Source: Gemmatimonadota bacterium
GTDB taxonomy: Bacteria > Gemmatimonadota > Gemmatimonadetes > JACCXV01
NCBI GenBank assembly: GCA_046262075.1
Contig: JBHENL010000106.1
Location: 1-44,036, forward strand
Direction of reading: 5' to 3'
DNA: 44,036 nt
The notes under the pieces are model-generated. The model was not told the DNA's origin. It worked only from the letters and a program-made list of their open reading frames with translations, and made no database searches. Positions 23,403-44,036 of the stretch are shown here, piece by piece. Both the position numbers and the translations under genes were made by a program. The stretch's first letter is position 1; each line of letters begins with the position of its first letter.

Positions 23403-24266
23403 TCAGCGGTCCCAGGCGAAGCTCCGCCCCAGGAGCTGATAGAGCCGCTCGTTCTGTGGGCGGAACTGCTCCACCAGCCGCGCGCGGGTGGCGGGATGCA
23501 TGGGCGGGTAGCTGTAGGCGTGGTGGCGTACCCGCGTCGCGAGCGGGACGGGCCGCAGGCCGAGGAAGCGCTGCACCGCCTCGAACGCGCCCTGCGGATC
23601 GGAGGTGAGCCGCGAGGACTCGAGCACCAGCAGCTGCTCGCGCGGGAAGAGCGCCAGCCAGCGCTCCAGCTGCTCGGCGTAGCGCCCACGTGCCTGATAC
23701 GAGTAGCGCAGCAGGCGCCGCGCGTCGTGATCGGGATCCCGTGCCAGACGCCGCCGCTCTCCGCGCAACCGCTCCGGCTCGCGCTCGAGCGCGGCTTCGA
23801 AGGACAGCGGCTCGTAGCCCCAGCGGACCCCGTGCTGGTAGTGGGAGTACGCCCGGTCCACGGGGTTGCGCAGCAGAGCGATGAGCCGTGCGTCCGGAAG
23901 GGTCTGGCGCACGCGCCCCGGAACCAGCGGGTGGAACACGTAGGAGGGGCTCGCCTCACCCGTCAGCCGTCCCCGCCGGCGGCCGGCCCGCAGCGGGAAG
24001 TGGCCGCGGTACCAGTCGGGACCGCGCGACCAGTTGTGATCGAAGAAATGGACCTCCTTGACGAGGGCGGGCGCCACGTCGGGATGAGCGGCGAGCCAGC
24101 GGAAGACCGAGGTCGTCGCGGACTTCTGCACCCCCACCACCAGGAAGTCGGGGAGCGGTCGCCAGCGGCGGGTCAGCCGCAGGCCGGGCGCCAGCACGGC
24201 CATGCGCGCGCGCTGCAGCGTGGGCCCGTGGCCGTGTCGCCGGAGGATGTCGGCCGGCGACCTCAT
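23403..24266 (-). CDS. sulfotransferase, Sulfotransfer_1-like (ST-A)
   Basis: Frame of ORF 23403..24710 trimmed to the ATG at 24266 (ATGA overlap with the dtd stop). 5'-PSB motif FLVVGVQKSATTS and 3'-PB motif LLRNPVDRAYSHY. Confidence 0.8.
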   Translation of the reverse strand: MRSPADILRRHGHGPTLQRARMAVLAPGLRLTRRWRPLPDFLVVGVQKSATTSVFRWLAAHPDVAPALVKEVHFFDHNWSRGPDWYRGHFPLRAGRRRGRLTGEASPSYVFHPLVPGRVRQTLPDARLIALLRNPVDRAYSHYQHGVRWGYEPLSFEAALEREPERLRGERRRLARDPDHDARRLLRYSYQARGRYAEQLERWLALFPREQLLVLESSRLTSDPQGAFEAVQRFLGLRPVPLATRVRHHAYSYPPMHPATRARLVEQFRPQNERLYQLLGRSFAWDR

Positions 24267-24757
24267 CCGCGCTCGAGCACGAACGTGGCCGGTCCGTCGT
24301 TCACGAGTGCGACCCGCATGCGAACGCCGAAGACACCCTGACGCACGCGCTGGTGCCGGCGTTCCAGCCGCTCGACGAAGCCGTCGTAGAGCGGCCGCGC
24401 GAGCCCGGCCGTGGCCGCGCCCGCGAAGTCGGGACGGCGGCCACGGTACAGCCCCGCGAGCAGCGTGAACTGGCTGACGACGAGGATCTCGCTCTCCATC
24501 TCGACCACCGATCGATCGAACCCTCCCTCCGCGCCGAAGATCCGCAGCGCGAGAACCTTGTCGGCCGCCCAATCCAGGTCCGCCGGCGTCTCGCCCCCGC
24601 CGAAGCCCACCAGCACGAGCAGACCCCGGCCGATGCGGGCGGTCTCGGTCCACGTCCGCGCCTCCCCGGCTGCGCATGCCTCCGCCATCTCCGGCGTGCG
24701 GGGCTCCCACGCCACGGAGACGGAGGCCTCGCGTACGCGCTGCAGGACCGCGCGCAC
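24263..24757 (-). CDS. dtd: D-aminoacyl-tRNA deacylase
   Basis: MRAVLQRV... N-terminus, ..LVVSQFTL.. and ..NDGPATFVLE at the C-terminus. Confidence 0.9.
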   Translation of the reverse strand: MRAVLQRVREASVSVAWEPRTPEMAEACAAGEARTWTETARIGRGLLVLVGFGGGETPADLDWAADKVLALRIFGAEGGFDRSVVEMESEILVVSQFTLLAGLYRGRRPDFAGAATAGLARPLYDGFVERLERRHQRVRQGVFGVRMRVALVNDGPATFVLERG

Positions 24758-28147: not shown

Positions 28148-28222
28148 TGGAGCCACCGAGCGGACTTGAACCTCTAACCTGCTGATTACGAATCAGCTGC
28201 TCTACCATTGAGCTACGGTGGC
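28148..28222 (-). tRNA. tRNA-Thr (anticodon CGU), CCA encoded
   Basis: The reverse complement folds by hand as a cloverleaf: acceptor GCCACCG/CGGTGGC, D arm GCTC-AATGGTA-GAGC, anticodon arm GCTGA-TTCGTAA-TCAGC (anticodon CGT), variable loop AGGTT, T arm AGAGG-TTCAAGT-CCGCT (one A.G mismatch), discriminator T, then CCA. Confidence 0.9.
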
Positions 28223-28431: not shown

Positions 28432-28450
28432 GCCTCTCGGGTGGCGGATG

Positions 28451-28841: not shown

Positions 28842-28982
28842 CTCCGCCGGCAGGCGGCTTCGGCCGCTGCCGGGTCAGCAGACCGTGACGACGAGCGCTC
28901 CGCCACCGCGGGGCGCTTCCGTTTTCCTCCGGCTCGCACGTTCGCGCTTCCCTGCCGCGCTCCCGGCGCCTAAGCTCCGTGC

Positions 28983-29126: not shown

Positions 29127-29175
29127 GGCTCGCGCGTGTCGGCCGATCGCCGGGACGGCGCACGCGGTGTCCTTC

Positions 29176-30738
29176 TCACGTCGTGCCCGGTGACGCCGTA
29201 CCGCTCGTCTCCTGCGCGAGACGCTCGAGCCGCCGCGCGACGCCCGGAGGAAACCGCTTCGACCCCACCAGGCTCCCCAGCAGGAGCACCGCCCGGCTGC
29301 CGTCGGCTCCCAGCACGAACGCCGGGCGTAGGAGCAGCGCCGCCGCCAGGGCCACGCCTGTGACGCCGAACGTCAGCAGGAGAAGCGGCGCGGGCGGCAG
29401 GACCTCGACCAGAGCGGAACGCACGGGCCATGCACAGGCGATGGCCAGCCCGGCGAGCGTCAGGCCCGGGAGCTGAGACCGCAGGTAGTCGCCCCAGCCG
29501 CACTCGAGCGGCCGCAGGCTCATGGCCGCCGCCAGGACGTAGTTGACCAGCACCGCGCCGAGGATGCCCACGGAGACGCCCGGGAGCCCCCAGCGCAGCC
29601 CGGCGAGGCTGCCGGCCAGCACCAGACCGGCGTAGACCGCCTCGCGCTTGCTGCGCTCGTACATGATGCCCAGCGCGCGAGCCAGCGAGTCGCCCGTCAT
29701 GTAGCCGGCGCGAAACAGAATGCCCACCGAGAGGATCTGGAAGGGCAGCACGGCGGCGTCCCAACCGGGCCCGAGGAGCACGCGCACGAGCTCCGGAGCG
29801 GTGATCACGAGGAGCGCGCTGAGCGGCGCCGTCACGAGCGCGATGATCGCGGAGCCGGTCAGGTACGTCGTTCGCAACCGTCCCGGCTGGTCCTGCATCC
29901 GCGCCATCACCGGGAAGAGTACCTTCGTCAGCACGCGCGCGAAGTAGGCGACGGGGAGCATCATCAGGCGGTACGCGCGCGTGTAGAGACCCAGCGCGCC
30001 GGCGCCCAGGACCCGGCCCACCACGAGGTAGTCGCCCTGGTTGCCGACGTAGTTGAAGACGCGCGCGAGGGTGAAGCCTCCCGCCAGCGACAGGAGCTCG
30101 CCCGCTTCCTTGCGCGCCACGAGCGGGCGGCGCGGATGCGGGCGCAGGGTGCAGACCACGGCCGAGCGGATCAGGTGCTGCCCCCAGGACCCGCCCACGA
30201 GGGCCCAGGGCCCGAAGCCCAGCGCCGCCAGGACGATCGCCGTCAGGCTGGTGCCGAGCGAGAGCGCCGCCACGTCCGCCCAGAGCAGCTTGCCGTACTC
30301 CAGCTCGCGCTCGAGCAGCGCCTGAGCGACGACCCCCAGGCTCACGAGCACGAAGTTGAAGCTGAGCGCGCGGATGATCGGGATCACGGCTTCGGTCCGG
30401 AAGAACCGCCCCATCCACGGAGCGATCCCCCATCCGACCAGCGTCATCAGGACGCCCATCGCGAGCGAGAGCGTGACCGCGACGCGGACGTGCTCGGGGC
30501 TCAGCTCCCGCCGCTGGATGAGTGCGGGGGCGACCCCCATCTGCGAGAGCAGCGCCGCGAAGCCCACGAAGACGGTGGCCATGCCGATCAGCCCGAAGTC
30601 CTCCGGGCGCAGCAGCCGCGAGAGGACCGCCAGCGTGACCACGCCGAGCACGGCCTGCACCAGCACGAACGTGTACTGAGAGGCGAGACCCAGGAAGGTG
30701 GAGCGGAGGAGCGCCCGGCGCGGGGGGGCGCTGCTCAC
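29176..30738 (-). CDS. Wzx-like polysaccharide/oligosaccharide flippase (MOP superfamily)
   Basis: Frame of ORF 29176..31773 trimmed to GTG 30738 (GTGA overlap with the GT4 stop). ..ALLRSTFLGLASQYTFVLVQAVLGVVTLAVLSRLLRPEDFGL.. About 12-14 TM segments, typical of the 'polysaccharide biosynthesis protein' family. Confidence 0.8.
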   Translation of the reverse strand: MSSAPPRRALLRSTFLGLASQYTFVLVQAVLGVVTLAVLSRLLRPEDFGLIGMATVFVGFAALLSQMGVAPALIQRRELSPEHVRVAVTLSLAMGVLMTLVGWGIAPWMGRFFRTEAVIPIIRALSFNFVLVSLGVVAQALLERELEYGKLLWADVAALSLGTSLTAIVLAALGFGPWALVGGSWGQHLIRSAVVCTLRPHPRRPLVARKEAGELLSLAGGFTLARVFNYVGNQGDYLVVGRVLGAGALGLYTRAYRLMMLPVAYFARVLTKVLFPVMARMQDQPGRLRTTYLTGSAIIALVTAPLSALLVITAPELVRVLLGPGWDAAVLPFQILSVGILFRAGYMTGDSLARALGIMYERSKREAVYAGLVLAGSLAGLRWGLPGVSVGILGAVLVNYVLAAAMSLRPLECGWGDYLRSQLPGLTLAGLAIACAWPVRSALVEVLPPAPLLLLTFGVTGVALAAALLLRPAFVLGADGSRAVLLLGSLVGSKRFPPGVARRLERLAQETSGTASPGTT

Positions 30739-31886
30739 CGAGCCGAAAGCTCCTCGTAGATCTCCTGCAGCGCATCGACCGTGCGGCGCACGTCGTAGGC
30801 TGCGCTCCGTGCGTAAGCCTGCGCGGCGAGCCGTTGCGCCAGCGGCCGGTCGTCGAGGAGCCGCACGAGCGCGCCCGAGAGGGCGGCGGGGTCTCGGGGC
30901 GGCACCAGCAGCGCGGTCGCTTCGTGACTCAGGACCTCCGCCAACCCGTCGATGCGCGTGGCGACGATCGGCCGCCCCATGGCCATCGCCTCGAAGACCG
31001 TCAGCGGCGTGCCTTCCCAGATCGACGGGAAGGCCTGGACCTCCATGACCGATTGGAGGAGCGGGATCTCCGTCGCGAACCCCGCGAAGAGGACCCGGTC
31101 GGACACGCCCAGGCGCCGGCACTCGAGGCGGTGCCGTTCCATCAGCTCCCCTTCCCCGACGAGCAGCAGCCTGGCCTCGGGGTGTCGCTCGAGGACTGCC
31201 GGCCACGCGGCGATCAGGAACTCGACGCCCTTCTGCGCGTCGAGACGCCCCACGACCCCGACGATCCGGTCCTCGGGCCGCAGCCCCCACCGCCGGCGTG
31301 CCTCGGCGACCTCTGCCTGCGACCGCGGCCGGAACTCGTCGAGAGGCGCACCATTGAATACCACGCGGATCCGATCCGGGCGCATGAAGCGGCGCCGCAC
31401 CATGAACTCGCGCGTGGACTCCGAGACGGCGATCCCGACGTCGAGGATGGGCGCCATCAGCCGGTCCACGGCCGCCTGGTAGGCCGGGACGTGCGGGAAC
31501 GCCGCATGCTCGTGCAGGACGAGCTTCACGCGCTCGAGTCGCGCGATCGGCCGGCCGTAGTTGGCGCCCACGTAGCCGTGCACGTGGAGCACGTGCGGCC
31601 GGTGCCGCCGGACGAGCCGATGCAGCGCCGTCCAGGTCGTGGGATCGAACTTCCGCTTCCCCAGGGAGATCGAGTCGACGCCTTGGGAGGCGAGGAGGCG
31701 GGCCGACTCGTCCCGTCCCTTCAGATGAACGAGCTGCACGTCGAAGCGCGCGGCATCGAACCGGGGCATCCACCAGGAGAAGAGTCGGGAGACGCCGTGC
31801 ATCCGCGAGCCGCGTACCCCGAACTTGTCGCAGACGTGCATCACGCGGATTCGCCCGTCGCCGCCGGATCCGGGACGCGCGCTCAC
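30735..31886 (-). CDS. glycosyltransferase family 4 (GT-B, retaining type)
   Basis: Frame of ORF 30735..32678 trimmed to GTG 31886 (GTGA overlap with the ST-B stop; the ATG at 31841 is an alternative). GRLDAQKG, and the E-x7-E motif EGTPLTVFEAMAMGRPIVAT. Confidence 0.85.
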   Translation of the reverse strand: MSARPGSGGDGRIRVMHVCDKFGVRGSRMHGVSRLFSWWMPRFDAARFDVQLVHLKGRDESARLLASQGVDSISLGKRKFDPTTWTALHRLVRRHRPHVLHVHGYVGANYGRPIARLERVKLVLHEHAAFPHVPAYQAAVDRLMAPILDVGIAVSESTREFMVRRRFMRPDRIRVVFNGAPLDEFRPRSQAEVAEARRRWGLRPEDRIVGVVGRLDAQKGVEFLIAAWPAVLERHPEARLLLVGEGELMERHRLECRRLGVSDRVLFAGFATEIPLLQSVMEVQAFPSIWEGTPLTVFEAMAMGRPIVATRIDGLAEVLSHEATALLVPPRDPAALSGALVRLLDDRPLAQRLAAQAYARSAAYDVRRTVDALQEIYEELSAR

Positions 31887-32818
31887 GCCACCTCCCGCCG
31901 CAGCGCGAAGCCGTAGGCCAGGAGCAGGGGCCAGGTCAGCGCCGTCACGAGCGTCCGCTGCCCGGCGGGCATGGCCTGCCGCCATTCGGTGTCCGCGCTG
32001 ACCGGCGTCCAGCCGCGCGTGAACCGCACCGGATTGCCGGCCACGAGGTGGTTCTCCGCCAGCTCGAGTCCGCCGTCGCGCAGGAAAGCCACGTCGGGTG
32101 ACGGCTCGCCGGTAGCGGAGATCACCCGCCGCAGCGCCTCGGCGGGGCGGCGCACGACGTCCTCGTAGCGCAGGCGCACGTAGCTCCGGGCACGCGACGC
32201 GAGGAGTCCGATCGCGGCGTTCTCCCGTGCCCAGTGAAACGCGCTTCGCGCCGGACTCTTCCGGGGCATGTGCTCCACCTTCCAGTGGACTTCCGGCAGG
32301 CGCTTCACACGCTGCCACGAGTGGGCGACGGCCCGGCTGTCGCGGACGACGTGCACGACGTGGAGCTCCACGTCGTGGGCGCTCGCCAGCGCGAGACCGT
32401 GCGTGGCGTACTTCGACGAGTCGACGACCAGGCGCGCTCCCGAGACGTCTGCCGCGGCGTGGAGGACACGTCCCAGCGCGTCCGCATAGGCCGCCAGCTC
32501 CCCGCGCGCCCGCTGCCCGCGGGACGCCCGCAGCAGGCGGGGCAAGGCGGCCGGGCGTGAGAGACGCTCCCGCACGGCGAGCATCGCACCCGCGTCGGGC
32601 ACGGCGCCCTCGCGGGCGAGGCGGTCGAGCACGCCACCCCAGAAGGGACAGTTCGAGAACGGCCGGAGGCAGCCGCACAGCTGGTTCTCCAGCATTCCCC
32701 GGTCCCAGAGGTAGCGCACCTCTCCGAGGGATCGGACGCCCGCGACATGGCCGAGCAAGAGGTCGAGCAGGGTGCTGCCGCTGCGGCTCCAGCTCGCGAC
32801 GAAGATCACGCGCGTCAC
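31883..32818 (-). CDS. sulfotransferase family protein (ST-B)
   Basis: 5'-PSB-like IFVASWSRSGSTLL at the extreme N-terminus, and 3'-PB-like HVVRDSRAVAHS. The GTG start at 32818 overlaps the ST-C stop (GTGA). Confidence 0.8.
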   Translation of the reverse strand: MTRVIFVASWSRSGSTLLDLLLGHVAGVRSLGEVRYLWDRGMLENQLCGCLRPFSNCPFWGGVLDRLAREGAVPDAGAMLAVRERLSRPAALPRLLRASRGQRARGELAAYADALGRVLHAAADVSGARLVVDSSKYATHGLALASAHDVELHVVHVVRDSRAVAHSWQRVKRLPEVHWKVEHMPRKSPARSAFHWARENAAIGLLASRARSYVRLRYEDVVRRPAEALRRVISATGEPSPDVAFLRDGGLELAENHLVAGNPVRFTRGWTPVSADTEWRQAMPAGQRTLVTALTWPLLLAYGFALRREVA

Positions 32819-33645
32819 GGCGACTCCGCGGGCGGGATCTCGAGCGCGGTGCCGGCGCAGAGGGGCGTCTCCGTCGGCAGGGCGGCCGGCGGCCTAAGCC
32901 GCTCGGGCTCGAGCAGGCTGTAGCCCCAGCGCCGCGCGTCGGCCTCCGAGCGACGCCCCACCCAGTGTGCGTAGGGGGCCCGCAGGGGGTTTTGCCGACG
33001 TCGTGCCCAGCGTTCGAAGTAGCGGGCGTTCGCGTCGCGGATGGGCAGGTCCGGCGTGTGCCGCGGCAGCCCCAGGAAGCGCAGCAGCTCGCGATGGATC
33101 TCCCGCGGCTCGGCCAGCCAGCACTCGTAGCGGACCACGAAGAGGCGGCGCAGCCGGGGCGCGTCTGCGCGCAGCGCCTCGTGACAGACGAACCAGTGGT
33201 CGAGGAGGCGATGGATCGGACGGTGCGACCACTTCCACGTCGCCAGCGACACCGCGAGGGGATGGCGGACGATCATGACGAACGCCGAGTCGGGGAACAA
33301 AGCCTGGAGGAAGCCCGCTCGCATGAGGTTCGGCGGTGATTTTTCCAGCAGGATCCTGCGCGAGAGGTCCCAATGCGGCGTCCACGCCGAGAGCAGACGG
33401 CGCGTCGCGTCGCGCGAGACGAGCGCGGAGTCCTCCGTCAGGTGCGCCTCCTCGTGGAACCCGAACCGGCCGGGCCCGCCCAGCGCGCGCGCCGTGGGAT
33501 AGACGTCCTGCAGGTGCTGGCCCTCGTCCTCGGGCGCACCGGTGCCGCGAAGGCCGCTCACGTCCGGATGCTCGGCCAGGACGCGGGCGAGCAGCGACGT
33601 GCCGCTCCGGTGCAGCCCGCCTACGAAGACGTATCGCGGAGACAC
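32815..33645 (-). CDS. sulfotransferase family protein (ST-C)
   Basis: Frame of ORF 32815..34230 trimmed to GTG 33645 (VSPRYVFVGGLHRSGTSLLARVL...). 5'-PSB GGLHRSGTS. The 3'-PB region deviates (MIVRHPLAVSLA). Confidence 0.75.
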   Translation of the reverse strand: MSPRYVFVGGLHRSGTSLLARVLAEHPDVSGLRGTGAPEDEGQHLQDVYPTARALGGPGRFGFHEEAHLTEDSALVSRDATRRLLSAWTPHWDLSRRILLEKSPPNLMRAGFLQALFPDSAFVMIVRHPLAVSLATWKWSHRPIHRLLDHWFVCHEALRADAPRLRRLFVVRYECWLAEPREIHRELLRFLGLPRHTPDLPIRDANARYFERWARRRQNPLRAPYAHWVGRRSEADARRWGYSLLEPERLRPPAALPTETPLCAGTALEIPPAESP

Positions 33646-33761
33646 GCGGGTCAGCGAAGCCTGAGCTCCTGCAAGGAAGTGACCCGCGGCTCGGGGTGGG
33701 CACGAGACGTCACGCGCCGGGACTGCGCGAGCAACACGCCCGGAGCGGGAAATCCCGCGGC

Positions 33762-34100
33762 CTAGGCCGGACCCTCGGTGAGACGGCTGTAGGAGCTGAA
33801 CGGGAGCAGGTCGCGGAAGCGGCGCTCCCACGTCTCGAGCTCGTGGTCGTCTCGCCGGAAACGGGGACGGCCGTCGAGATAGTAGCGCCATCCCGGCGGC
33901 GTGATGCGTACGGCCGGCGAGATGCCGCCTTCGGAGCGGCAACGCAGCATTTCGAGGAGCCCCAATCCCTGAAGCGCCACGAGCTGCCGAGTGAGCGTGA
34001 TCCGATCCGTGGAGAAGATCTGGCCCAGGCGTTCGAGCGAAACGGCGCTCGTGCTCTGGGCACATATCTCCAGGATCAGTTGGACGAAATCGGCCAACAC
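33762..34100 (-). CDS. small winged-helix (MarR-like) DNA-binding protein candidate
   Basis: 112 aa. SLERLGQIFSTDRITLTRQLVALQGLGLLE resembles the recognition helix and wing of the MarR/wHTH family. The region is locally less GC-rich. It sits upstream of, and co-directional with, ST-C/ST-B/GT4/Wzx, and is divergent from GT2. Confidence 0.45.
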   Translation of the reverse strand: MLADFVQLILEICAQSTSAVSLERLGQIFSTDRITLTRQLVALQGLGLLEMLRCRSEGGISPAVRITPPGWRYYLDGRPRFRRDDHELETWERRFRDLLPFSSYSRLTEGPA

Positions 34101-34250
34101 GTCTCTCGCGTCGGAGTGGGGTGTCCAATGTGCTCCCCCGCTTCGAGGGCCGCAAGCACGGGACGTCCTCCGGGAGTGCCGAGGAGCGGGAAGACGCGCT
34201 CCGCCGCGGGGATCGCGCGGCTCGCGCCACGGAGGTAATCTCCCTCCGCC

Positions 34251-35312
34251 ATGCAGCGACGCCCGACAGCGACTCCCGAGTCCCTACCGCCCGTCACGAT
34301 CGGCGTCGTCTCGCACAACACCGAAGCGGTGATCGGCGACTGCCTGGATTCCTTGACACGTCTCGACTATCCCCGTTACGAGCTCCTGTTCGTCGACAAC
34401 GCCTCGAGCGACGGCACCCCGCACCGAATCCGCGAGCGTTTCCCCGGAGCACGCCTGATCCGGCTTGCGAAGAACGAGGGGCCGAACCCGGCCCGGAACC
34501 TGATCCTGCGGACCGCGGCGCACCGGCACGTCCTGCTGGTCGAGGACGATGTCCTCTTCGAGCCGGGGGCGCTGCGCGGTCTCGTTGCAGCCATGACCGC
34601 TGACCCTCGATGCGGCATCGCCATGGGACGCATCCTCTTCGCGGATTCCGGCGCGATCCAGTACAGCGACATCCACCCGCACTTCCTCGGCGAGGTCACG
34701 ATCCGGAACCAGGGAAAGCCGCCGGCAGCCTGCACGTCGGCGACTCGCCCGACGACGCTCGCGCCCGGCTGCTTTCTACTCGTCGACAGAGTCAAGGCGA
34801 GCGAGATCGGCGGGTTCGACGAGTACTACGTGTTCGGCAAGGAGGACAGCGACTTCGCCTTCCGCATGACCCTGGCCGGGTACACGAACCTGGAGGTCCC
34901 CGCGACCCTGGTCCGGCACAAGGTCAAGCCGCGCGGCTTCACGCGCTCCTACCATCAGCTCCGAAACCGCTGGTACTGGATCCTGAAGCTCTTCTCGACC
35001 CGCACGCTCCTGCTGACGGCACCCGCGCTACTCGTCCACGAGCTGGTCACCCTGGCTTTCTTCGTGAGAGCGCGCCAGCTCGGGGATTATTCGAGGGCCC
35101 TCGCCGCGTTTCCCGCGAGTCTGCCCGAGGCGCTGCGCGCGCGGCGGCGCACGCTGGCTCTCAAGTGCGTGCCGGACCGGGCCGTCCTCACGGCGGAGGC
35201 CATGCAAGTGCGGAGCGATGTCCTGCGACCCGGCTCGACCGCGTGGAAGCTGAAGCGGAATTACGATGCGGGGATGGCGCTGTACTGGCGGTTGGTGCGC
35301 CGGTTGCTTTGA
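34251..35312 (+). CDS. glycosyltransferase family 2
   Basis: ITIGVVSHNTEAVIGDCLDSL..LLFVDNASSDGT..LLVEDDVLF (GT-A fold with DxD). GGAGG lies 16 nt upstream of the ATG. Confidence 0.85.
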   Translation: MQRRPTATPESLPPVTIGVVSHNTEAVIGDCLDSLTRLDYPRYELLFVDNASSDGTPHRIRERFPGARLIRLAKNEGPNPARNLILRTAAHRHVLLVEDDVLFEPGALRGLVAAMTADPRCGIAMGRILFADSGAIQYSDIHPHFLGEVTIRNQGKPPAACTSATRPTTLAPGCFLLVDRVKASEIGGFDEYYVFGKEDSDFAFRMTLAGYTNLEVPATLVRHKVKPRGFTRSYHQLRNRWYWILKLFSTRTLLLTAPALLVHELVTLAFFVRARQLGDYSRALAAFPASLPEALRARRRTLALKCVPDRAVLTAEAMQVRSDVLRPGSTAWKLKRNYDAGMALYWRLVRRLL

Positions 35313-35353: not shown

Positions 35354-36442
35354 CTACGGCGAACGCTTCGGGAGAGACCTCTTCATTCTGCCGAGGCGGC
35401 GCACGAGATTGCCGGCCGTGTGGAGGCCGTCCCCGACGTGCGATCGCAGCTCTTCCGTGCGGGTGGGGGCCGCCGCGGCGACCCCGAAGAGTCTTTCGTA
35501 CCCGAGATAGCCGAGGAGGTCTCCCGTGAGCCCCTCGAAGATCTCGATCTCGCGCGCCGTCAGCGTCTGGCGCCAGGCCTCGGCTCGCCCGCGTTGCGGC
35601 TCCCCGCCGATGAGGGCGTGATGCGCCGCGGTGTAGCGCGGGACTCGGAAACCCGTGGGGTTCCGCATCTCCGGCACGAAATCCAGCTCGAGAAAGTCGC
35701 AGAGGCTGCGTAGCGGAGCCTCCGAATCCACGAGCAGATCCTCGAAGCGCACTCTGCGGACGCGCGCTTCGCTCCAGCGGGCCTCCGCGGCGAGGCCGTA
35801 GGCCAGGTTCTTGGGCCACCAGGCGGCGGCATGTAGGATCGAGTTGGGCCCCCAATCCAGGGGAAGGACGGACGCCGCCACTCCACGTCCGTCGCGGACG
35901 AGATGGATCATCTTGGCCGTCTCGAAGCGCTCGAACAGCGTGTGGGCGTAGCGCGTATTCCCGGGCGTGTGATCCACCCACACGTCAGCCTGGGGCTTTC
36001 CGACGGCGGCGGCGTAGCCGCGCACCAGGCTCTCCAGCGTGAGGCGATACCTCTCCGGCGCTGCACCGTGGCCGGTCTCCGGCAGGTCCTCGAGATCGAC
36101 GTTCCAGAATCGATACCGCCAGTGGCGCTGGAGCGCCGCCGCGATTTCGGAGCGCGGGGGACCGCCTCCGGCCCAGGAGCACTCGCGCAGCAGCTCGATC
36201 TTGAAGGGCATCTCCGGCACACAGACGCACGCCGGGTGAGCGCCGAGCATGGCACCCAGCATCGTCGTCCCGCTCCGCGGGCAGCCCCCGATGAAGACCG
36301 CCTTCAAGGGACCTCCCGTCACCTCGGTCGGCCCGCTCGTGGAAGGCGCCGACTCGGGGTCGACGCTCTGGGCCAGGGAGCGCTCTTCATCTGGCGCGTC
36401 GGAACGACCCAGCCAGCCTCCTGCGCGCGGCGAACGCCACAT
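35354..36442 (-). CDS. sulfotransferase family protein (ST-D)
   Basis: 5'-PSB AVFIGGCPRSGTTML and 3'-PB HLVRDGRGVAAS. The start is ambiguous. The ATG at 36442 overlaps the ST-E 3' end by 56 nt. GTG 36322 (VTGGPLKAVFIGG...) gives an N-terminus like those of the paralogues. Confidence 0.75.
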   Translation of the reverse strand: MWRSPRAGGWLGRSDAPDEERSLAQSVDPESAPSTSGPTEVTGGPLKAVFIGGCPRSGTTMLGAMLGAHPACVCVPEMPFKIELLRECSWAGGGPPRSEIAAALQRHWRYRFWNVDLEDLPETGHGAAPERYRLTLESLVRGYAAAVGKPQADVWVDHTPGNTRYAHTLFERFETAKMIHLVRDGRGVAASVLPLDWGPNSILHAAAWWPKNLAYGLAAEARWSEARVRRVRFEDLLVDSEAPLRSLCDFLELDFVPEMRNPTGFRVPRYTAAHHALIGGEPQRGRAEAWRQTLTAREIEIFEGLTGDLLGYLGYERLFGVAAAAPTRTEELRSHVGDGLHTAGNLVRRLGRMKRSLPKRSP

Positions 36443-37424
36443 GGTCGAGGCTCTTGACGAGGTGCACCGGGTCCGCCGCCACGGAACGCGCCTTACGAAG
36501 TGGGGCTTCGACCCTCCGGCGGAAGAACTCCTCCATCGGCGAAAGCGTGGCCTGCGGCACCACGCGCTCATAGCCGTAGCGCTCCAGCGTGCGCCCTGCC
36601 ACGGCCTCGAAGATGCGCATCTCCCCCACGCTCATCGCCGTGCGCCACTTCTCCACGTTTCCGCGGAGCAGCGGCCGCCGCAGGTTCGCGGCGTTCACCT
36701 CCTCCCGGCGATACCGCCCCTCGTCCCGGTGGTACTCGAGCATGTCGGGGACGAACGTCTCCCCCAGGAACTCGCAGACCCGGGTCAGCTCTCGCTCCGG
36801 GTTCGCCAGCAGATCTTCGTAGCGCAGCACGAAAGCGCCGGCACTGCCACCGGCGACGTCGAGCCGCTCCACGCGCTGGACGTACGCTGCCCAGCGCCCG
36901 GCCGCGGCGTACACGCTCTTGGGGCCGAAGGATGCGCGCAGCGTGGAGAGTGCGACATCACGCCCGTCGCGGATGATGTGGACCGCCTTGGCTCCCGGAA
37001 AACACGTGCGGATCTGCCGCCAGTACCGGACGTGCTGCGGGGTCTTCTCGCCCCACCGCGCCTTGCCGCGGTCGCGTGCCCACGTTCCCAGGAGCGCGCC
37101 GACGATTCCGCCGAAATCGTGCTCGCCGATCGAGGCCAACACACGATCGCGGTCGGGCCGAGGAGACCAGAACGCCACGGGGCGCCGATGCAGCATGTCG
37201 GTGACCATGCGCTCACGGCACGCGCGGTGGCTCAGATCGCCATAGTGGTTTCGCAGCGGGTAGAAGCGGGTGAAGAGATGCGACTCGTTGGGAATCGCGA
37301 TGCGCGGATGCTGGTCCAGCATGCGTGACAGGAGCGACGTGCCCGAACGCGGGCAGCCGAACACGAAGAACGGTGGCTCCCCGGCCTCGTGCAGGGTCTG
37401 GCGAGTCGCATCGGGAGCGTTCAT
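36387..37424 (-). CDS. sulfotransferase family protein (ST-E)
   Basis: 5'-PSB FFVFGCPRSGTSLL and 3'-PB HIIRDGRDVALS. 345 aa. Confidence 0.8.
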   Translation of the reverse strand: MNAPDATRQTLHEAGEPPFFVFGCPRSGTSLLSRMLDQHPRIAIPNESHLFTRFYPLRNHYGDLSHRACRERMVTDMLHRRPVAFWSPRPDRDRVLASIGEHDFGGIVGALLGTWARDRGKARWGEKTPQHVRYWRQIRTCFPGAKAVHIIRDGRDVALSTLRASFGPKSVYAAAGRWAAYVQRVERLDVAGGSAGAFVLRYEDLLANPERELTRVCEFLGETFVPDMLEYHRDEGRYRREEVNAANLRRPLLRGNVEKWRTAMSVGEMRIFEAVAGRTLERYGYERVVPQATLSPMEEFFRRRVEAPLRKARSVAADPVHLVKSLDHVAFAARRRLAGSFRRAR

Positions 37425-37525: not shown

Positions 37526-38416
37526 TCAAGGTTGGTATCCCAGCTCGAGGAGCAGGTCCTGCTGGAGCGCGGTGACGCGCTCGATCTGCTCGGGGGTGAA
37601 CCGGCTGCGCCATTTGTCGTTCCTGCTCTCGAGCCGTTCGGGGAAGCGCTCGATCACGGCGGGTCCCGCCGGCAGCTCCGCGAACGAGAACGCCCTACCC
37701 AGGACCCCGCGGCAATCACGGCAGAGGTCCTCGTAGCGGAATTCATGATAGCGCCCGTCCAGCGCGTCACGCGTGGCGCGCACGTGGCTCACGATCCTGA
37801 CCCAATCCAATGCCGCGTGCTCCAACGGATCCGCCGGTCCGCGCGGGTCCCCACCTTCCGGGGGCTTCACGAACTTCATCCCGAATTCCTCGCGCAGGCG
37901 CCACATCGACTCGGCGACCGCGCGGCCATCCCGGATCACGTGCACGAATACGGCATCCGGGAACACGGCGCGAACGAAGTCGATGCGGATTGAGTTGAAG
38001 GGCGACTTGTTGAAGAAGCGCTTGGCGTGGTGGAGCCACTGGTGGAACGCGAAGCGCGAGTGCAGCCGCTCGACCTCCTCGGGAGTGGCGTCGTGCGCCG
38101 TTCGGACGTCGCTCTTCGGCAGCCGACCCTGCAGCAGGCCCGGATCCCACACCGCGCGAGCCTCCGAGAGATTCGCGACGTCCGGATGTGCGGCGAAGAG
38201 TCGCGTCGCGATCGTGGTGCCCGATCGCGGCGAGCCGATCATGAAGATGGGCCGGTCGAGCCGCTTGCCGCGTCCGAGCGTGCGGCGCCACACCTGGTAG
38301 AGCGGATATTGGAGGGCCCACCGCGCCTGGGGCCCGAGCTCCTTTCCGCGCAGGGCGGACGGCGCGAGACGCTTGAGCGTCTCGTTCATCGCAGTCCGGC
38401 GGAAGTCGGCGCTCAT
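37526..38416 (-). CDS. sulfotransferase family protein (ST-F)
   Basis: Frame of ORF 37526..38989 trimmed to the ATG at 38416 (MSADFRRTAMNETLKRL...). 5'-PSB IFMIGSPRSGTTI and 3'-PB HVIRDGRAVAES. Confidence 0.8.
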   Translation of the reverse strand: MSADFRRTAMNETLKRLAPSALRGKELGPQARWALQYPLYQVWRRTLGRGKRLDRPIFMIGSPRSGTTIATRLFAAHPDVANLSEARAVWDPGLLQGRLPKSDVRTAHDATPEEVERLHSRFAFHQWLHHAKRFFNKSPFNSIRIDFVRAVFPDAVFVHVIRDGRAVAESMWRLREEFGMKFVKPPEGGDPRGPADPLEHAALDWVRIVSHVRATRDALDGRYHEFRYEDLCRDCRGVLGRAFSFAELPAGPAVIERFPERLESRNDKWRSRFTPEQIERVTALQQDLLLELGYQP

Positions 38417-38442: not shown

Positions 38443-39114
38443 TCAAACCAGCGCCGGGGCCGACACCTCGCGCGCCGACTGGAGCCATCCTTCGGCCTGC
38501 AGGTACTCGAGCACCCGCAGCGCGCTCTGCTCCGGGCTGTCGGGATGCGTGGTCAGGACGAGGCTCGCCTCCACCGGCGCCTCGTAGGGATCGCTCACGC
38601 CGGTGAAGTTCTTGATCTCCCCCGCCAGCGCCTTGGCGTAGAGGCCCTTCACGTCCCGCTCGATGCACACCTCCAGCGGACAGTCCACGAACACCTCGAT
38701 GAACCGCTCCGCGCCGACGATCGAGCGGGCCAGATCGCGCTCCTCGCGGTAGGGCGAGATCGCGGCGACCATCACCGGCACCCCATTCCTCACGAGCAGC
38801 TGCGAGACGAAGGCGATGCGGCGGATGTTCAGGTCCCGGTCCTGCTTGGTGAACCCGAGCTCGGGCGAGAGGTTCGCGCGCACCACGTCGCCGTCCAGGA
38901 TCTCGATGGACGTCCCCGACTCGCGGAACTGCCGCGCGAGGATCCGCGTGATCGTGGACTTGCCCGCGCCCGAGAGTCCCGTGAACCACAGCGCGAAACC
39001 ACCCCGCCCCGTCCCGCCGTGGCGTCCGTTCATGCCTGCCGTCCCGGTGGAGGTTGCGGCCGTGCCCGCGCCGTCCCGCGCGGCGGCCTGAATGTCGATT
39101 CGCCCCGCGTTCAC
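38443..39114 (-). CDS. cysC: adenylyl-sulfate (APS) kinase
   Basis: P-loop FTGLSGAGKST, LDGDVVR, and ..FTGVSDPYEAP. The start is either GTG 39114 (GTGA overlap with the sat stop) or the ATG at 39033 (MNGRHGG...). Confidence 0.9.
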   Translation of the reverse strand: MNAGRIDIQAAARDGAGTAATSTGTAGMNGRHGGTGRGGFALWFTGLSGAGKSTITRILARQFRESGTSIEILDGDVVRANLSPELGFTKQDRDLNIRRIAFVSQLLVRNGVPVMVAAISPYREERDLARSIVGAERFIEVFVDCPLEVCIERDVKGLYAKALAGEIKNFTGVSDPYEAPVEASLVLTTHPDSPEQSALRVLEYLQAEGWLQSAREVSAPALV

Positions 39115-40334
39115 GAGGCGGCCCCCGCGGCGCGGTAGTGACGGCCGAGGATCTCGGCGATCTCCACGCGCGTGAACTCCAGCGGCAGCGGCTCGCCCGC
39201 GGCCAGGTTCTCCCGTACCTGCGTGCCGCTCAGCATGACCCGCTGCTGAGACGGGTGTGGGCAGGTCTTCTCGGAGGCCATGTGGCCGCAGCTGCGGCAC
39301 CAGAACGTGTTGTCGAAGAAGAGCGGCGTGATTCCCAGGTCCGCGGCCGGAATGTCGCGCAGCAGCTCCTGCGCGGCGTACGTCCCGTAGTAGCCCCCCA
39401 CGCCCGCGTGGTCGCGGCCAACGATGAAGTGCGTGCAGCCGTAGTTCTTCCGCGCCAGCGCGTGGAACACTGCCTCGCGCGGACCGGCATAGCGCATGGC
39501 CGCCGGATAGACGCCCATCAGCGTCCGCCGCGCGGGATAGTAGTTCTCGAGCAAGGCCTCGTAGCAGCGCATGCGCACCTCGGCGGGCACGTCCTCCGAG
39601 CGCGTCTCCCCCACCAGCGGGTGCAGGAAGAGCCCGTCCACGATCTCGAGCGCGCACTTCTGGATGTACTCGTGCGCGCGATGGATCGGATTGCGGGTCT
39701 GGAACGCCACGACCGTCCGCCAACCGCGCTCCGCGAAGAGCGCGCGGGACTCGAGCGGACGGCTGGGGTAGCCGGGATACGGCGCGGGGATCGCATCGGG
39801 GATGAGCGTGATGGCGCCCGCCAGGTTCAGCGTGCCTCCGGACACCAGGCGCGCGACGCCGGGATGCTTCGTCTCTTCGGTGCCGTAGACCCGCCGCGCC
39901 TCGCGGAGCGGATCGATGCGGTAGCGCTCCTCGATCTCGATCCAGCCCACCGGCTTCCCCTCGGGGCTTTCGAGGACCAGCACGTGGGGCGTGCGCCCCG
40001 CCGCGTGCTCCTCGTCCGTGACGGTGAGCGTCACCGGGATCGGCCACAGCGTGCCGTCCTCCAGCCGCATGTCCTCGACGACCGTCTGCCAATCGCGGGA
40101 GCCTAGGAACCCCGTCAGCGGACTGAACGCGCCGCAGGCGATGAGGACCGCGTCGGAGAGCTGGTGGGCGGTGAGCCGCACGCGGCCGGCGCCGCGCCAG
40201 TTCTCGAGCACCTGTGCCGTCTCCTCAGCTGTGGCCCAGCGCTGGACCAGCGCGCCGCCGTGGGCTGGACGAGGCGTCGTCTTACCGGCGCTCGCCGGCT
40301 CCATGTCGGTGACTTGGGACGATATGGCAGGCAT
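39111..40334 (-). CDS. sat: sulfate adenylyltransferase (ATP sulfurylase, homo-oligomeric Sat type)
   Basis: FQTRNPIHRAHE and HFIVGRDHAGVG motifs, with a PUA-like N-terminal domain. 407 aa. Confidence 0.9.
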   Translation of the reverse strand: MPAISSQVTDMEPASAGKTTPRPAHGGALVQRWATAEETAQVLENWRGAGRVRLTAHQLSDAVLIACGAFSPLTGFLGSRDWQTVVEDMRLEDGTLWPIPVTLTVTDEEHAAGRTPHVLVLESPEGKPVGWIEIEERYRIDPLREARRVYGTEETKHPGVARLVSGGTLNLAGAITLIPDAIPAPYPGYPSRPLESRALFAERGWRTVVAFQTRNPIHRAHEYIQKCALEIVDGLFLHPLVGETRSEDVPAEVRMRCYEALLENYYPARRTLMGVYPAAMRYAGPREAVFHALARKNYGCTHFIVGRDHAGVGGYYGTYAAQELLRDIPAADLGITPLFFDNTFWCRSCGHMASEKTCPHPSQQRVMLSGTQVRENLAAGEPLPLEFTRVEIAEILGRHYRAAGAAS

Positions 40335-40627
40335 AACCCTCGATCTGGGCAGTGGTTGGGTCTCGATGGGCAGGACGGGCGTCAGCGTATACCCGCAGGC
40401 TCGGGCAAGGTGCCACGACGGCGGGAACGCCAGAATCGGCCATGGGATGTAGATCGCCGGTCCGCCGGGCTACCCCATCCGGTCCGAGACTGCTGCGAGC
40501 GGCGCGGCCACGGAATTTAGGCTTGCGTCCGCCAGATTCCAGCGGGCAGCGGTGTGCTCGACGTGGAAACGCTGCCGTGCCGTGGAATCGGCGGTGGCCG
40601 AGGGAGGACTGCGGTGGCGGGGCCCGG

Positions 40628-43321
40628 CTACTTCACGTTGATGATGACCGCGGGCGAGTACCGGGACGCTTTACCGTTGGAGAGCTTTCTCAACCTCGCG
40701 CGGAACTGATACTTGCCGATTCCTATATCCGGCGTGAAGCTCGTACCGAGGACGGTCTGGGCCGTCAACCAGGGGGAGAACACGGTGGCTCCCGGGCGGC
40801 GGATCTGCACGTCGACGACATATCCGGAAGGCAGACTCGACGCCCACACGAGCTGGAAGGTGGTCGTGGTCTTTCCCGAGGTGGGCGTCACGCGGACCGG
40901 CAGCTTCACGCTGCCGTAGACCGACGTGTGCTTGGCGCAGTTGTACAGGTAGGAGCCGGCCACCGTGAACGGGAACGAATACTTCGCGCCTGACGCCTGA
41001 ACTCCCGAATCGAACAGCGCCATGCCGGATTTATCCTTGATTCCGTGCAGACCTGACCCGTCGAAGCTCCACTGTACGATTATCCCGAACGCTGCCCGCA
41101 GAGCGCTCGGTGAGAATTGGGTGTCGAGCACCGACACGATCGAGGTCGGCATGGACGAGACGGTGATGCTGGCGTTCGTGCCCGCGCTGGCCCCGTCGTC
41201 GTCGGTCACCGTCAGGCGCACGGTGTAGGTGCCGCCCGTGGCGTAGCTGTGCGATGGGTTGCGAAGGGCCGAGACGGCGCTGTCGCCGAAGTCCCAGCTC
41301 CAGGCCGCCAGCGTCCCGTCGCTGTCGGAGCTGCCGTCCGTGAAGCTGCACGAGAGCCCCGAGCAGGCGGACGTGAACGCCGCCGTCGGCGGATTGTTCG
41401 CCGCCGAGACGGTGATCGACTGGTTCGTCATGGCGCTCGCGCCGTCGTCGTCCGTCACCGTCAGCCGCACCGTGTACGTCCCGCCCGTGGCGTAGCTGTG
41501 CGAGGGGTTGCGCACGCTAGAGGTGCCACCGTCGCCGAAGTCCCAGCTCCAGGCCGCCAGCGTCCCGTCGCTGTCGGAGCTGCCGTCGGTGAAGCTGCAC
41601 GAGAGCCCCGTGCAGGCCGGGGTGAACGCCGCCGTCGGCGCCGCGTTCGCGGCCTGCACCGTCACGGCCTGGCTCGTCACGGCGTTCGCCCCATCGTCGT
41701 CGGTGACCGTCAGCCGCACCGTGTACGTGCCCCCCACGGCGTATGTGTGCGATGGATTGCGCACGCTCGACGTCGCACCGTCGCCGAAGTCCCAGCTCCA
41801 GCTCGCCAGCGTCCCGTCGCTGTCGCTGCTGCCGTCGGTGAAGCTGCACGAGAGCCCCGTGCAGGCCGAGGTGAACGCCGCCGTCGGTGCGGCGTTTGCG
41901 GCCGAGCTGTCACCCTGCAGGACCGCGAGGCGTTGATCCAGGTCCGTTCGAGTTCCCGCGTAGGCAGGGTCGTTCACGGCGTTCGTCAGCTGCCACGGGT
42001 CCGCCGCCAAATCGTAGAGCTCACGGTCTCCGTTGTCGTACTCCACATAGACGTACCGTTGTGTGCGGATCGCGCTGAACTGTCGCTTCACATCCAGGTT
42101 CCCGCTCGCGTCACCGACCATTTGCTCCAGAAGCGCATCGTCGCGCCAGCTAAGCTGCGGGTTCTGCAGCATCGCGACCATGCTCTGGCCGTCGACGCTC
42201 GCGGGCACCGGGAGCCCCGCCCAAGTGGCGATCGAGGGCGCGAGGTCCACGTTGAGCAGCACCCGGTCCTCGACGCGCGGGAGGACGCCCGGTGCCTTCA
42301 CCACGAACGGCACCCGCGTGCAATCCTCGTAGACGCAGGCCTTCGGCTTCCAGCGGTGCGCGCCGAGTGCTAGGCCATTGTCGGACGTGAAGATCACCAC
42401 GGCGTTGTTCCACCGGCCGGTGCGCTGGAGCGCATCCGCGATCGCCGCCACCCCCCGATCCACGGGCTGCAGGGACCGGAGCATCTTGCGATACAGCACG
42501 TCCAGGGCGCTGATCGAGTCGGCGGGCAGCTGGGGACGCTGCTGGACCCACTGTGGCTTGTCCGATACGTCCGCCTCGTTGAAATTCGGCGGACGCCAGA
42601 TGTCGCTCGGGAACTTGTCTTTGTCCTCCGCGACGAAATCCGCCGGCTCATGGGGTGCGAACGGCGTGTACATCAGGAACAGGGGCGTGCCCGCGGGGGT
42701 GGACTCGATGAACTCGACCGCCTTGTCCGTCAGCACGTCCGTCGAATAGATGCCCGCGCCGCCGTAATACACTTCCACTCCGTCCTCCACGAGCGTGAAC
42801 GGCCGGTAGTCCGGGGTGTGGAACGCCACCCAGCGATCCCATCCCGGAGGGACGTACGGCCATGGGAGGATCCGCTTGTACTCGTTCATGTACTTGCCGA
42901 TGAGAGCCGTGCGGTAGCCGGCGGCGTCGAGCCAGGTCGCGAGGGTCGAGGTGTCGTTGAACTTCGTGGCCCCGCCTCTCGGCGCGTCGTTGCTGAGCAC
43001 GCCGTGGGTGTGGACGAACTGGCCGGTGAGGATCGAGGCGCGGCTCGGGCAGCAGATGGCCGTCGAGACGAGGAAATTCGTGCCACTGACGCCCGTGCGG
43101 GCCAGCAGGGAATCCACCGCCGGCATGACGTCCAGCGTGTAATGCGGCTGATCGTCGGTGAGGATGAGCACGACGTCGTGCCGGGTCTGCGCGTGGGTCG
43201 GGGCGACGGACAGCGCGAGGGCGATCAGCGCCGTCAGGACGGATGGCAACCCGCTCCGGGCGCCGGGCCGAAACTCCAGCGGTGGCCTCGGCGCCGGGCG
43301 CACGCGCCGGCAGCCCCTCAT
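40628..43321 (-). CDS. secreted Cys-type (formylglycine) sulfatase fused to 3 PKD repeats and a cupredoxin-like/Ig-like C-terminal module
   Basis: Frame of ORF 40628..43495 trimmed to the ATG at 43321 (MRGCRRVRPAPR...LIALALSVAPTHAQ signal peptide). Metal site VVLILTDDQ. FGly motif STAICCPSRASILTGQ. Three 83-aa repeats (..SCSFTDGSSDSDGTLA.WSWDFGD...GTYTVRLTVTDDDGA..). The tail contains ..FDSG...AGSYLYNCAKHTSVYGSVKL. Confidence 0.85.
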   Translation of the reverse strand: MRGCRRVRPAPRPPLEFRPGARSGLPSVLTALIALALSVAPTHAQTRHDVVLILTDDQPHYTLDVMPAVDSLLARTGVSGTNFLVSTAICCPSRASILTGQFVHTHGVLSNDAPRGGATKFNDTSTLATWLDAAGYRTALIGKYMNEYKRILPWPYVPPGWDRWVAFHTPDYRPFTLVEDGVEVYYGGAGIYSTDVLTDKAVEFIESTPAGTPLFLMYTPFAPHEPADFVAEDKDKFPSDIWRPPNFNEADVSDKPQWVQQRPQLPADSISALDVLYRKMLRSLQPVDRGVAAIADALQRTGRWNNAVVIFTSDNGLALGAHRWKPKACVYEDCTRVPFVVKAPGVLPRVEDRVLLNVDLAPSIATWAGLPVPASVDGQSMVAMLQNPQLSWRDDALLEQMVGDASGNLDVKRQFSAIRTQRYVYVEYDNGDRELYDLAADPWQLTNAVNDPAYAGTRTDLDQRLAVLQGDSSAANAAPTAAFTSACTGLSCSFTDGSSDSDGTLASWSWDFGDGATSSVRNPSHTYAVGGTYTVRLTVTDDDGANAVTSQAVTVQAANAAPTAAFTPACTGLSCSFTDGSSDSDGTLAAWSWDFGDGGTSSVRNPSHSYATGGTYTVRLTVTDDDGASAMTNQSITVSAANNPPTAAFTSACSGLSCSFTDGSSDSDGTLAAWSWDFGDSAVSALRNPSHSYATGGTYTVRLTVTDDDGASAGTNASITVSSMPTSIVSVLDTQFSPSALRAAFGIIVQWSFDGSGLHGIKDKSGMALFDSGVQASGAKYSFPFTVAGSYLYNCAKHTSVYGSVKLPVRVTPTSGKTTTTFQLVWASSLPSGYVVDVQIRRPGATVFSPWLTAQTVLGTSFTPDIGIGKYQFRARLRKLSNGKASRYSPAVIINVK
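41159..41905. repeat. three tandem 249-bp near-identical repeats (encode the PKD domains)
   Basis: Period of 249 bp, read from the anchor gtcccagctcca at 41291, 41540 and 41789. A 48-nt string (gtcccagctccaggccgccagcgtcccgtcgctgtcggagctgccgtc) is identical at 41291 and 41540. Confidence 0.85.
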
Positions 43322-43716: not shown

Positions 43717-44036
43717 ATGACGGACCCGCGAGCGAGGGGCTATCTGCACGAGGCGTACGTCGAGGCCCTGCGTGAGTTCGGGACTCCGCGGCGACTCCCC
43801 GCCAGCGGAGGCTGGATCCTCGAGCGCGAGATTCCGGGTACCCGGCACCGCGACGCCATCGGCTGCTATCCCCTGTTTACGTGCCTGAATTGGCAGCGAT
43901 TGCGCGAGGATCTCGAGCAACTCCAAGGCGAGCTCGTTTCGCTCACCATTGTGGCCGACCCGCTCGCCGCTCCCGACAGGAGCGAGCTTGTGCGCGCCTT
44001 TCCCGACCTCGCGCGGCCCTTCAAGGAGCACTACAT
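43717..44036 (+). CDS. hypothetical protein, N-terminal part only (runs off the right edge)
   Basis: Not in the ORF track because there is no stop in the window. ATG at 43717. MTDPRARGYLHEAYVEALREFGTPRRLPASGGWILEREIPGTRHRDAIGCYPLFTCLNWQRLREDLEQLQGELVSLTIVADPL... has G/C-dominated third positions and a protein-like composition, unlike the overlapping minus-strand ORF 43492..44031. Confidence 0.5.
   Translation, partial: MTDPRARGYLHEAYVEALREFGTPRRLPASGGWILEREIPGTRHRDAIGCYPLFTCLNWQRLREDLEQLQGELVSLTIVADPLAAPDRSELVRAFPDLARPFKEHY

Follow-up and report, generated by a model that had tools for sequence, protein, structure and literature searches.

The window analysed here, a complete 44,036-bp contig (JBHENL010000106.1) with ~72% GC from the metagenome-assembled genome (MAG) of a soil-type Gemmatimonadota bacterium, encodes at 40628..43321 on the minus strand a protein of the secreted type, predicted to be a carbohydrate sulfatase of the S1 family, which is extended by three PKD repeats and by a tail that joins a plastocyanin-like cupredoxin to an Fn3-like domain. 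The gene heads an array of genes predicted to supply 3'-phosphoadenosine 5'-phosphosulfate (PAPS) and to build a multiply sulfated glycan. The combination of an S1_6-like sulfatase with three PKD repeats and a cupredoxin-Fn3 tail varies a known architecture in a new way, and the presence of a sulfatase within a locus for sulfated-glycan synthesis does the same for a known gene arrangement; judged from its sequence, the enzyme itself adds a member to a clade already known. We regard the general enzymology, namely Sec export, formylglycine formation, removal of O-sulfate outside the cytoplasm and tethering, as highly probable, and hold the balance to be even on whether the substrate is the sulfated glycan of the surrounding locus, be it for trimming, quality control or turnover.

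An exported sulfatase with the S1 catalytic residues

The gene was delimited by its open reading frame (ORF), Pfam matches and the GC content of third codon positions (GC3). The frame ends at 40628 and is open as far as 43495; the GC3 coding signal reaches ~0.9 only from ~43285, a rise that fits a start either at the ATG at 43321 (897 amino acids, aa) or at the TTG at 43249 used by NCBI (873 aa), which has a GGAG a few bases on its 5' side. Homology search recovered the window protein (P0001) in the latter form, as an NCBI 'PKD domain-containing protein' of 873 aa, and an exact-product look-up of the 897-aa version gave no match because the NCBI start differs. With either start the protein keeps the hydrophobic h-region LPSVLTALIALALSVA (residues 25-42) followed by a cleavage-type THA↓Q, which together with an Arg-rich n-region make up the signal peptide predicted from sequence and hydropathy (residues 1-44; 43190..43321, minus strand, as for all parts of the gene below). 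Inspection of the N-terminus found no lipobox and no convincing twin-arginine motif beside the h-region, and we read it as a probable Sec-type signal.

Pfam places Sulfatase (PF00884) at residues 49-369 (E 1.2e-38; 133.6 bits against a cut-off of 25), SGSH_C at residues 320-469 (E 4.9e-21), and PKD_4 (E 1.4e-61) and PKD (E 5.5e-36) in three stretches each. Alignments and motifs agree with a catalytic domain that includes the SGSH_C subdomain (residues 47-470; 41912..43183), and tandem-repeat analysis with three PKD repeats (residues 476-723; 41153..41896), which form a 249-bp tandem array (41156-41902) of 2.9 copies at 86% DNA identity. With a range of 79-86% DNA identity among the repeats, a recent internal duplication is suggested. 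The number of PKD repeats varies among homologues. The initial annotation, which had described an exported protein of ~900 aa with a signal peptide and three PKD repeats, is borne out in this respect.

Two motifs can be read directly, LTDDQ (D55, D56) and STAICCPSRASILTGQFVHTHGV, the latter containing C90-x-P-x-R94 followed by ASILTG. The formylglycine motif, C90-C-P-S-R94 (43040..43054), is of the Cys type, and CCPSR is found in 94 of 120 homologues. Sequence inspection and alignments to BT4656 and GNS locate the whole S1 metal and catalytic set, comprising D55, D56, K143, H224, D314, N315 and K325/K327. The protein therefore combines the features that define S1 membership, i.e., a PF00884 match, C/S-x-P-x-R followed by xxxLTG, and the full set of metal and catalytic residues, in line with its first description, from the DDQ site, the cysteine motif and the signal peptide, as an exported Cys-type S1 sulfatase.

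The best match in the PDB is the N-acetylglucosamine (GlcNAc)-6-O-sulfatase BT4656 (5G2V; E 4e-43, 151 bits, in two aligned pieces), followed by unnamed sulfatases, the mucin-desulfating sulfatase 7P24 and the exo-L-galactose-6-sulfatase 7LHA; human GNS is absent from the list of PDB matches. A sequence that we take to be human GNS, unverified and hence a lead only, was scored with the same program and database size. It gave a single unbroken alignment of 173 bits (query residues 10-401), presumably spanning GKYMNEY/GKYLNEY ... PPGW ... APH ... SVD ... TSDNG, a stretch that the BT4656 alignment leaves uncovered. In SulfAtlas, GNS and SULF1/2 belong to S1_6, where a Volvox arylsulfatase is also listed, and MdsA and a Pedobacter heparan sulfate 6-O-sulfatase to the sister clade S1_11; MdsA, GNS, SULF1 and SULF2 are all given as specific for GlcNAc-6-sulfate (PMC5066984). 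A GKY-N-Y-type motif (GKYLNGY, GKYLNDY, GKYLNEY, GKYMNEY and similar) is present in most of the 120 homologues, many of which carry the JGI name 'N-acetylglucosamine-6-sulfatase'. Collectively, the window protein looks like a predicted S1_6-like, or at least S1_6/S1_11-group, carbohydrate 6-O-sulfatase. The kinship with GlcNAc-6-sulfatases proposed earlier thus holds, with BT4656 as best structural match, the JGI names, and CCPSR and GKY(L/M)NxY found across the family.

As had been stated at the outset, none of the ORFs scanned on the 44-kb contig encodes a formylglycine-generating enzyme (FGE; PF03781) or a radical-SAM maturase of the anaerobic sulfatase-maturating type (anSME). The window being one contig, with the rest of the MAG genome lying outside the scan, this absence carries no weight and does not imply absence from the genome.

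The sulfatase beside predicted sulfated-glycan genes

The content of the locus was determined by Pfam scans of all sizeable ORFs on the contig. The sulfatase heads a co-oriented minus-strand array that runs from sat to the sixth sulfotransferase, with a single gene, for a GT2 glycosyltransferase, on the plus strand. Immediately downstream, and on the same strand, come ATP sulfurylase (Sat; 39111..40334) and adenosine 5'-phosphosulfate (APS) kinase (CysC; 38443..39033), so that the sulfatase indeed lies directly upstream of the PAPS genes, as first reported. They are followed by sulfotransferase 6 (Sulfotransfer_3; 37526..38416), sulfotransferase 5 (36387..37424), sulfotransferase 4 (35354..36571; ORF limits, the true start probably lying further downstream), the GT2 gene (34251..35312, plus strand), sulfotransferase 3 (32815..34230; ORF limits, with the domain in the C-terminal half), sulfotransferase 2 (31883..32818), a GT4 glycosyltransferase (30735..31830; start approximate), a Wzx-type polysaccharide flippase (29176..30700; start approximate), a glmM-like PGM/PMM gene (26632-28086) and glmS (24783-26609), both of which would supply hexosamine precursors, and sulfotransferase 1 (Sulfotransfer_1 type; 23403..24710; ORF limits), all on the minus strand apart from GT2. 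The gaps measure 77 bp between sat and cysC and 26 bp between cysC and sulfotransferase 6, and the downstream genes overall are 26-101 bp apart. With this gene content, the locus is predicted to direct PAPS-supplied synthesis of a multiply sulfated glycan, and the glmS/glmM pair, bracketed as it is by sulfotransferases, hints at hexosamine in that glycan. Wzy, Wza, Wzc and a priming transferase were not found on the contig. Six sulfotransferase paralogues (five of the Sulfotransfer_3 type and one of the Sulfotransfer_1 type) against two glycosyltransferases and a flippase make an unusually high ratio.

On the other side of the sulfatase lies a divergent partial ORF for a hypothetical protein of 106 aa (ABR599_05105; 43717..44036, plus strand) that has no Pfam match. 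Its homologues are 101-184 aa long, and one of them, 60% identical, sits in another glycan locus (L173/L174) with GT2s, a PMT_2 protein, WbqC, a methyltransferase and DegT, which suggests that the sulfatase is probably inside the glycan locus and not at its edge. A FemAB-like identity that had been guessed for this ORF was not borne out.

Eleven distinct loci with homologues of the catalytic domain (35-52% identity; tblastn) were examined for recurrence of the pairing. In one of these, L167, a 52%-identical sulfatase gene (7779-10492) ends in a TAG stop that overlaps by 1 nt the GTG start of a sulfotransferase, which is 32% identical to sulfotransferase 1 of the window and is followed by UDP-glucose dehydrogenase, Wza, Wzc, a MurJ-like flippase and a GT4 glycosyltransferase. 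This locus (GC 64%; JGI sample 3300051851) has no sat or cysC. Read at the level of genes, L167 appears to be an independent case in which the same sulfatase family is translationally coupled to sulfation and export genes for an extracellular polysaccharide (EPS). The position of the sulfatase inside the locus and this one independent recurrence make a functional link between the sulfatase and the sulfation locus suggestive.

Proposed role and competing explanations

We propose that Sec exports the protein and that an unlinked maturase, encoded elsewhere in the genome, would oxidise Cys90 to formylglycine, with the Asp55/Asp56/Asp314/Asn315 site holding a divalent metal. The enzyme would then hydrolyse an O-sulfate, most likely a hexosamine or hexose 6-O-sulfate, on a periplasmic or extracellular glycan. 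The three PKD repeats would act as a spacer or as a stalk that binds glycan or the surface, and stalk and cupredoxin-Fn3 module together may position or tether the enzyme, the module probably still binding copper. Trimming or turnover of the locus's own sulfated polymer beyond the cytoplasm, comparable to what hydrolases and lyases from other EPS operons do and to SULF editing of heparan sulfate, is the most likely role, since the sulfatase comes first in an array that would make PAPS and a multiply sulfated glycan, and a glycan-locus gene is found on its other side too.

Several observations weigh against a link with the locus, or against the substrate class on which it draws. Ten of the 11 homologue loci lack sulfotransferase and PAPS genes and have unrelated neighbourhoods; their homologues bear diverse accessory domains (Big_7, Laminin_G_3, fn3, F5/8-type C and tails of the type IX secretion system, T9SS) and look like free-standing secreted degradative or scavenging enzymes. 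Among 80 Sat loci from GTDB species representatives of many phyla (Sat 50-57% identical), no sulfatase of this family occurs within a 10-kb radius. The intergenic spacer between the sulfatase and sat (40335..40627, minus strand) is 293 bp long, longer than the other gaps of the array, and co-transcription with the locus is unsupported; no promoter-like or terminator-like site and no Rfam match was found in it. The S1_6 assignment, for its part, is based on an unverified GNS sequence and third-party names and not on SulfAtlas itself. The earlier proposal that the enzyme remodels or recycles the product of the neighbouring locus therefore stands as regards the locus, which is of the sulfated-glycan type (six sulfotransferases and glmS/glmM), and is no more than plausible as regards action on its product, given the rarity of the pairing.

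Much of this would be expected of an unrelated scavenger, that is, a secreted Gemmatimonadota sulfatase that desulfates glycans of plant, algal, animal or microbial origin in the environment, making them usable as a carbon source, and adjoins the locus by coincidence. Most homologues are singletons in unrelated neighbourhoods, their diverse C-terminal binding-type domains, PKD among them, are typical of extracellular degradative enzymes, the length of the spacer fits a separate gene, and a look-elsewhere effect enters as well, in that any neighbouring pair of this sort would have been picked out at the first stage. On the other hand, glycan-locus genes flank the sulfatase on both sides, the L167 homologue is coupled to a sulfotransferase in an EPS locus, and no glycoside hydrolase, TonB receptor or sugar transporter adjoins the sulfatase in the window. 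We consider such a scavenger somewhat unlikely, though well worth keeping in mind.

The order sulfatase, sat, cysC on one strand could also mark a sulfur-acquisition unit, in which the sulfatase frees sulfate from external organosulfates and the sulfate, after uptake, feeds Sat and CysC to provide PAPS for the sulfotransferases. Bacterial sulfatases are classically induced by sulfate limitation (ats/cys regulons), which speaks for this explanation. However, the scanned ORFs of the window include no sulfate transporter, none of the 80 Sat loci repeats the pairing, and the L167 sulfatase is paired with a sulfotransferase and EPS export genes in the absence of sat and cysC; we thus judge sulfate supply to be decidedly unlikely. 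Finally, a promiscuous alkaline-phosphatase-superfamily enzyme (of the phosphonate monoester hydrolase, PMH, or phosphodiesterase type) or an inactive binding protein is very improbable, for although NCBIfam matches include PehA, all far below curated cut-offs, and PMHs are among the weaker PDB matches, the full S1 catalytic set with C-x-P-x-R is in place, the best matches are carbohydrate sulfatases, and PMH-type matches score about half as high.

Returning to trimming of the cell's own glycan, the window locus and L167 allow a more specific version that resembles the work of the animal SULFs: in the cytoplasm, the sulfotransferases would load the repeat unit with more sulfate than the finished polymer keeps, and once the polymer is exported the S1_6-like sulfatase would remove particular 6-O-sulfates and so define the final pattern. 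We put this forward as a doubtful but instructive idea. More speculative is the notion that the cupredoxin part, with its His-Cys-His ligands, might form a functional copper site through which the enzyme is linked to copper or redox status; formylglycine generation under aerobic conditions also depends on copper.

Bacterial sulfated EPS are poorly understood, and how their sulfation patterns are set is almost wholly obscure. If the link is true, an exported sulfatase encoded in the locus would give bacteria an equivalent of the sulfate editing that heparan sulfate undergoes after its synthesis in animals, and the presence of synthesis and trimming enzymes in one locus would offer a direct handle for engineering defined sulfated polymers. 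If it is false, the protein is one more secreted carbohydrate sulfatase with decorative domains.

Four further results of the comparative searches can be set down here. The Sat-based genome scan brought up no closely orthologous locus, its best Sat match being 57% identical. When metagenomes were scanned with the complete protein, matches to the PKD repeats dominated, and the catalytic domain was returned in L091 alone, with almost no context. A 'sulfatase' next to Sat, CysC and sulfotransferase genes in an actinobacterial Sat/CysC/TauE/sulfotransferase locus (L028:13651-14847), the single sulfatase-like neighbour among the 80 Sat loci, was rejected as a recurrence, the C/S-x-P-x-R motif being missing; this sulfatase-fold protein reads ISAAPRTS at the motif and may be a member of the alkaline-phosphatase superfamily that does not use formylglycine, in a sulfation context. 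Likewise set aside as conserved synteny was a sulfatase-PKD gene near rplM-rpsI-glmM-glmS in L002, a distant organism of 62% GC in which GlmS is only 49% identical and the housekeeping order is a widespread one.

A cupredoxin-Fn3 module shared with many secreted proteins

The tail comprises 174 aa (residues 724-897), somewhat less than the ~190 aa first estimated; its description as cupredoxin-like is upheld by structure prediction. Sequence models yielded only a weak halocyanin match (26 bits against a cut-off of 94). An AlphaFold2 (AF2) model built from 12 aligned tails reached a mean predicted local distance difference test (pLDDT) of 95.8 and a predicted TM score (pTM) of 0.88, and Foldseek matched its first half to the N. 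maritimus cupredoxin 5fc9, amicyanin, plastocyanin, pseudoazurin and the B. anthracis Cupredoxin_1 (TM 0.68-0.79 normalised on the target; prob 1.00 for 5fc9, amicyanin, plastocyanin and pseudoazurin). According to the model, AF2, Foldseek and alignment thus concurring, the first half is predicted to be a true cupredoxin fold of the plastocyanin/amicyanin type (~residues 724-810; 40892..41152). The second half is modelled as an Fn3/Ig-like beta-sandwich (~residues 811-897; 40631..40891), which is always coupled to the cupredoxin in the two-domain module.

Across 456 domain copies of this cupredoxin family, the ligand columns hold His in 425, Cys in 362, His in 365 and Met in 361, with the consensus C-x2-H-P-x-M, as in amicyanin, and ~80% of the copies keep His-Cys-His-Met. 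The window protein retains H759, C795 and H798 but carries V801 in place of the axial Met of the family, and so lacks the full ligand set of type-1 copper cupredoxins. Loss of the axial Met alone does not abolish copper binding in cupredoxins, as seen in laccases with Leu or Phe and in amicyanin M98 variants, and such M98 variants are among the PDB structures matched by Foldseek. With His-Cys-His kept, a copper site in the window cupredoxin is therefore plausible.

The ~175-residue two-domain tail recurs on sulfatases of the same family, at the C-terminus and also at the N-terminus (P0017, P0023). A word-indexed homology search with the tail alone gave one match and was superseded by a complete profile scan with HMMER against 1.84 billion representatives, which matched 924 proteins at E<=1e-30 and as many as 4362 at E<=1e-10. 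Among the matches listed, C-terminal placement of the full module predominates (55), ahead of stand-alone occurrence (<300 aa; 21) and of internal (11) and N-terminal (6) placement; stand-alone members are named 'plastocyanin' by JGI. In some proteins, of up to 3670 aa, the cupredoxin half alone is present in 5-17 tandem copies. Partners in 81 representatives include PD40/DPPIV propellers (13), sulfatases (5-6), FG-GAP, PQQ_2 and Vgb_lyase; the Copper-bind model reaches 7 and Cupredoxin_1 reaches 5 of the 81. Lyases, too, are among the proteins with a C-terminal cupredoxin-Fn3 module, and no Pfam model spans the whole of it. Cupredoxin-Fn3 is thus a widespread, promiscuous accessory module that is not specific to sulfatases, and the variety of its partners favours a general role outside the cell, as an accessory or an anchor. 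With thousands of 50%-identity representatives, the module is very common and fused to many secreted enzymes; our literature searches found no paper linking cupredoxins to sulfatases, no cupredoxin-sulfatase fusion and no study of the module.

Comparison with known systems

Like human GNS and SULF1/SULF2 of S1_6, the window protein has a Cys-type CCPSRASILTG and GKY(L/M)NEY where other S1 clades have GKWH, and it is colinear with GNS over ~390 residues (in the unverified sequence). With the SULFs it shares predicted action outside the cytoplasm and, if the link with the locus is real, the editing of a polymer after its synthesis; unlike them, it is bacterial and has three PKD repeats and a cupredoxin/Fn3 tail in place of the SULF hydrophilic domain. 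The fold, the catalytic residues and the SGSH_C subdomain are common to BT4656 (5G2V, S1_11) and the mucin-desulfating sulfatases (7P24) as well, whereas BT4656 is Ser-type (SGPSR), belongs to a catabolic polysaccharide utilization locus, has no accessory domains and leaves the middle region unmatched. Amicyanin, plastocyanin and pseudoazurin share the fold of the window cupredoxin, and amicyanin the His...Cys-x2-His-x2-Met of the family consensus; unlike these proteins, the window cupredoxin is fused to a hydrolase, is followed by an Fn3-like domain, has an axial Val and no evident redox partner.

AlgL, PslG, BcsZ and PelA are polymer-degrading or polymer-modifying enzymes encoded in EPS synthesis operons, and the gene positions of the window sulfatase and of its L167 homologue fit such exported, product-trimming enzymes, which, unlike the sulfatase, cleave or deacetylate the backbone. 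The earlier remark that synthesis and desulfation side by side are unusual hence needs to be narrowed: polymer-degrading enzymes in EPS operons are well known, but a sulfatase in such a role would be new. As regards sulfated EPS, the loci for cyanobacterial synechan (xss) and of Pontiella combine sulfotransferases, glycosyltransferases and Wzx-type export (PMC8205485, PMC7356697). Their descriptions contain no sulfatase, in contrast to the window, which has a sulfatase, six sulfotransferases and sat/cysC, and no Wzy, Wza or Wzc on the contig; in our literature searches, which included synechan, Pontiella and a Shark Bay sulfated-EPS metagenome study, no sulfatase was described in a bacterial sulfated-EPS synthesis locus.

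Other features of the contig

A tRNA-Thr(CGT) gene (28148..28222, minus strand; Rfam/tRNA match) lies between the flippase gene and glmM and is the only element matched by Rfam; no promoter or terminator was called near the sulfatase gene, and the intergenic regions of the locus have no shared repeat or regulatory motif. The ~950 bp between the tRNA gene and the flippase gene contain no convincing ORF and no Rfam match. The region 28148-29175, tRNA gene included, could be an island boundary or integration site of the sulfation locus. At 0.67-0.72, the GC content of the sulfation locus falls a little short of the 0.72-0.78 seen in the first 18 kb. Beyond the sixth sulfotransferase the contig carries maf, rplM, rpsI, rpsB, tsf, pyrH, frr, uppS, cdsA, dxr, rseP and other housekeeping genes. 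A 1058-aa ORF at 6274-9450 (minus strand) joins Peptidase_MA_2 and PD40 beta-propeller repeats to a C-terminal Omp85-type barrel, an unusual fusion for an outer-membrane protein.

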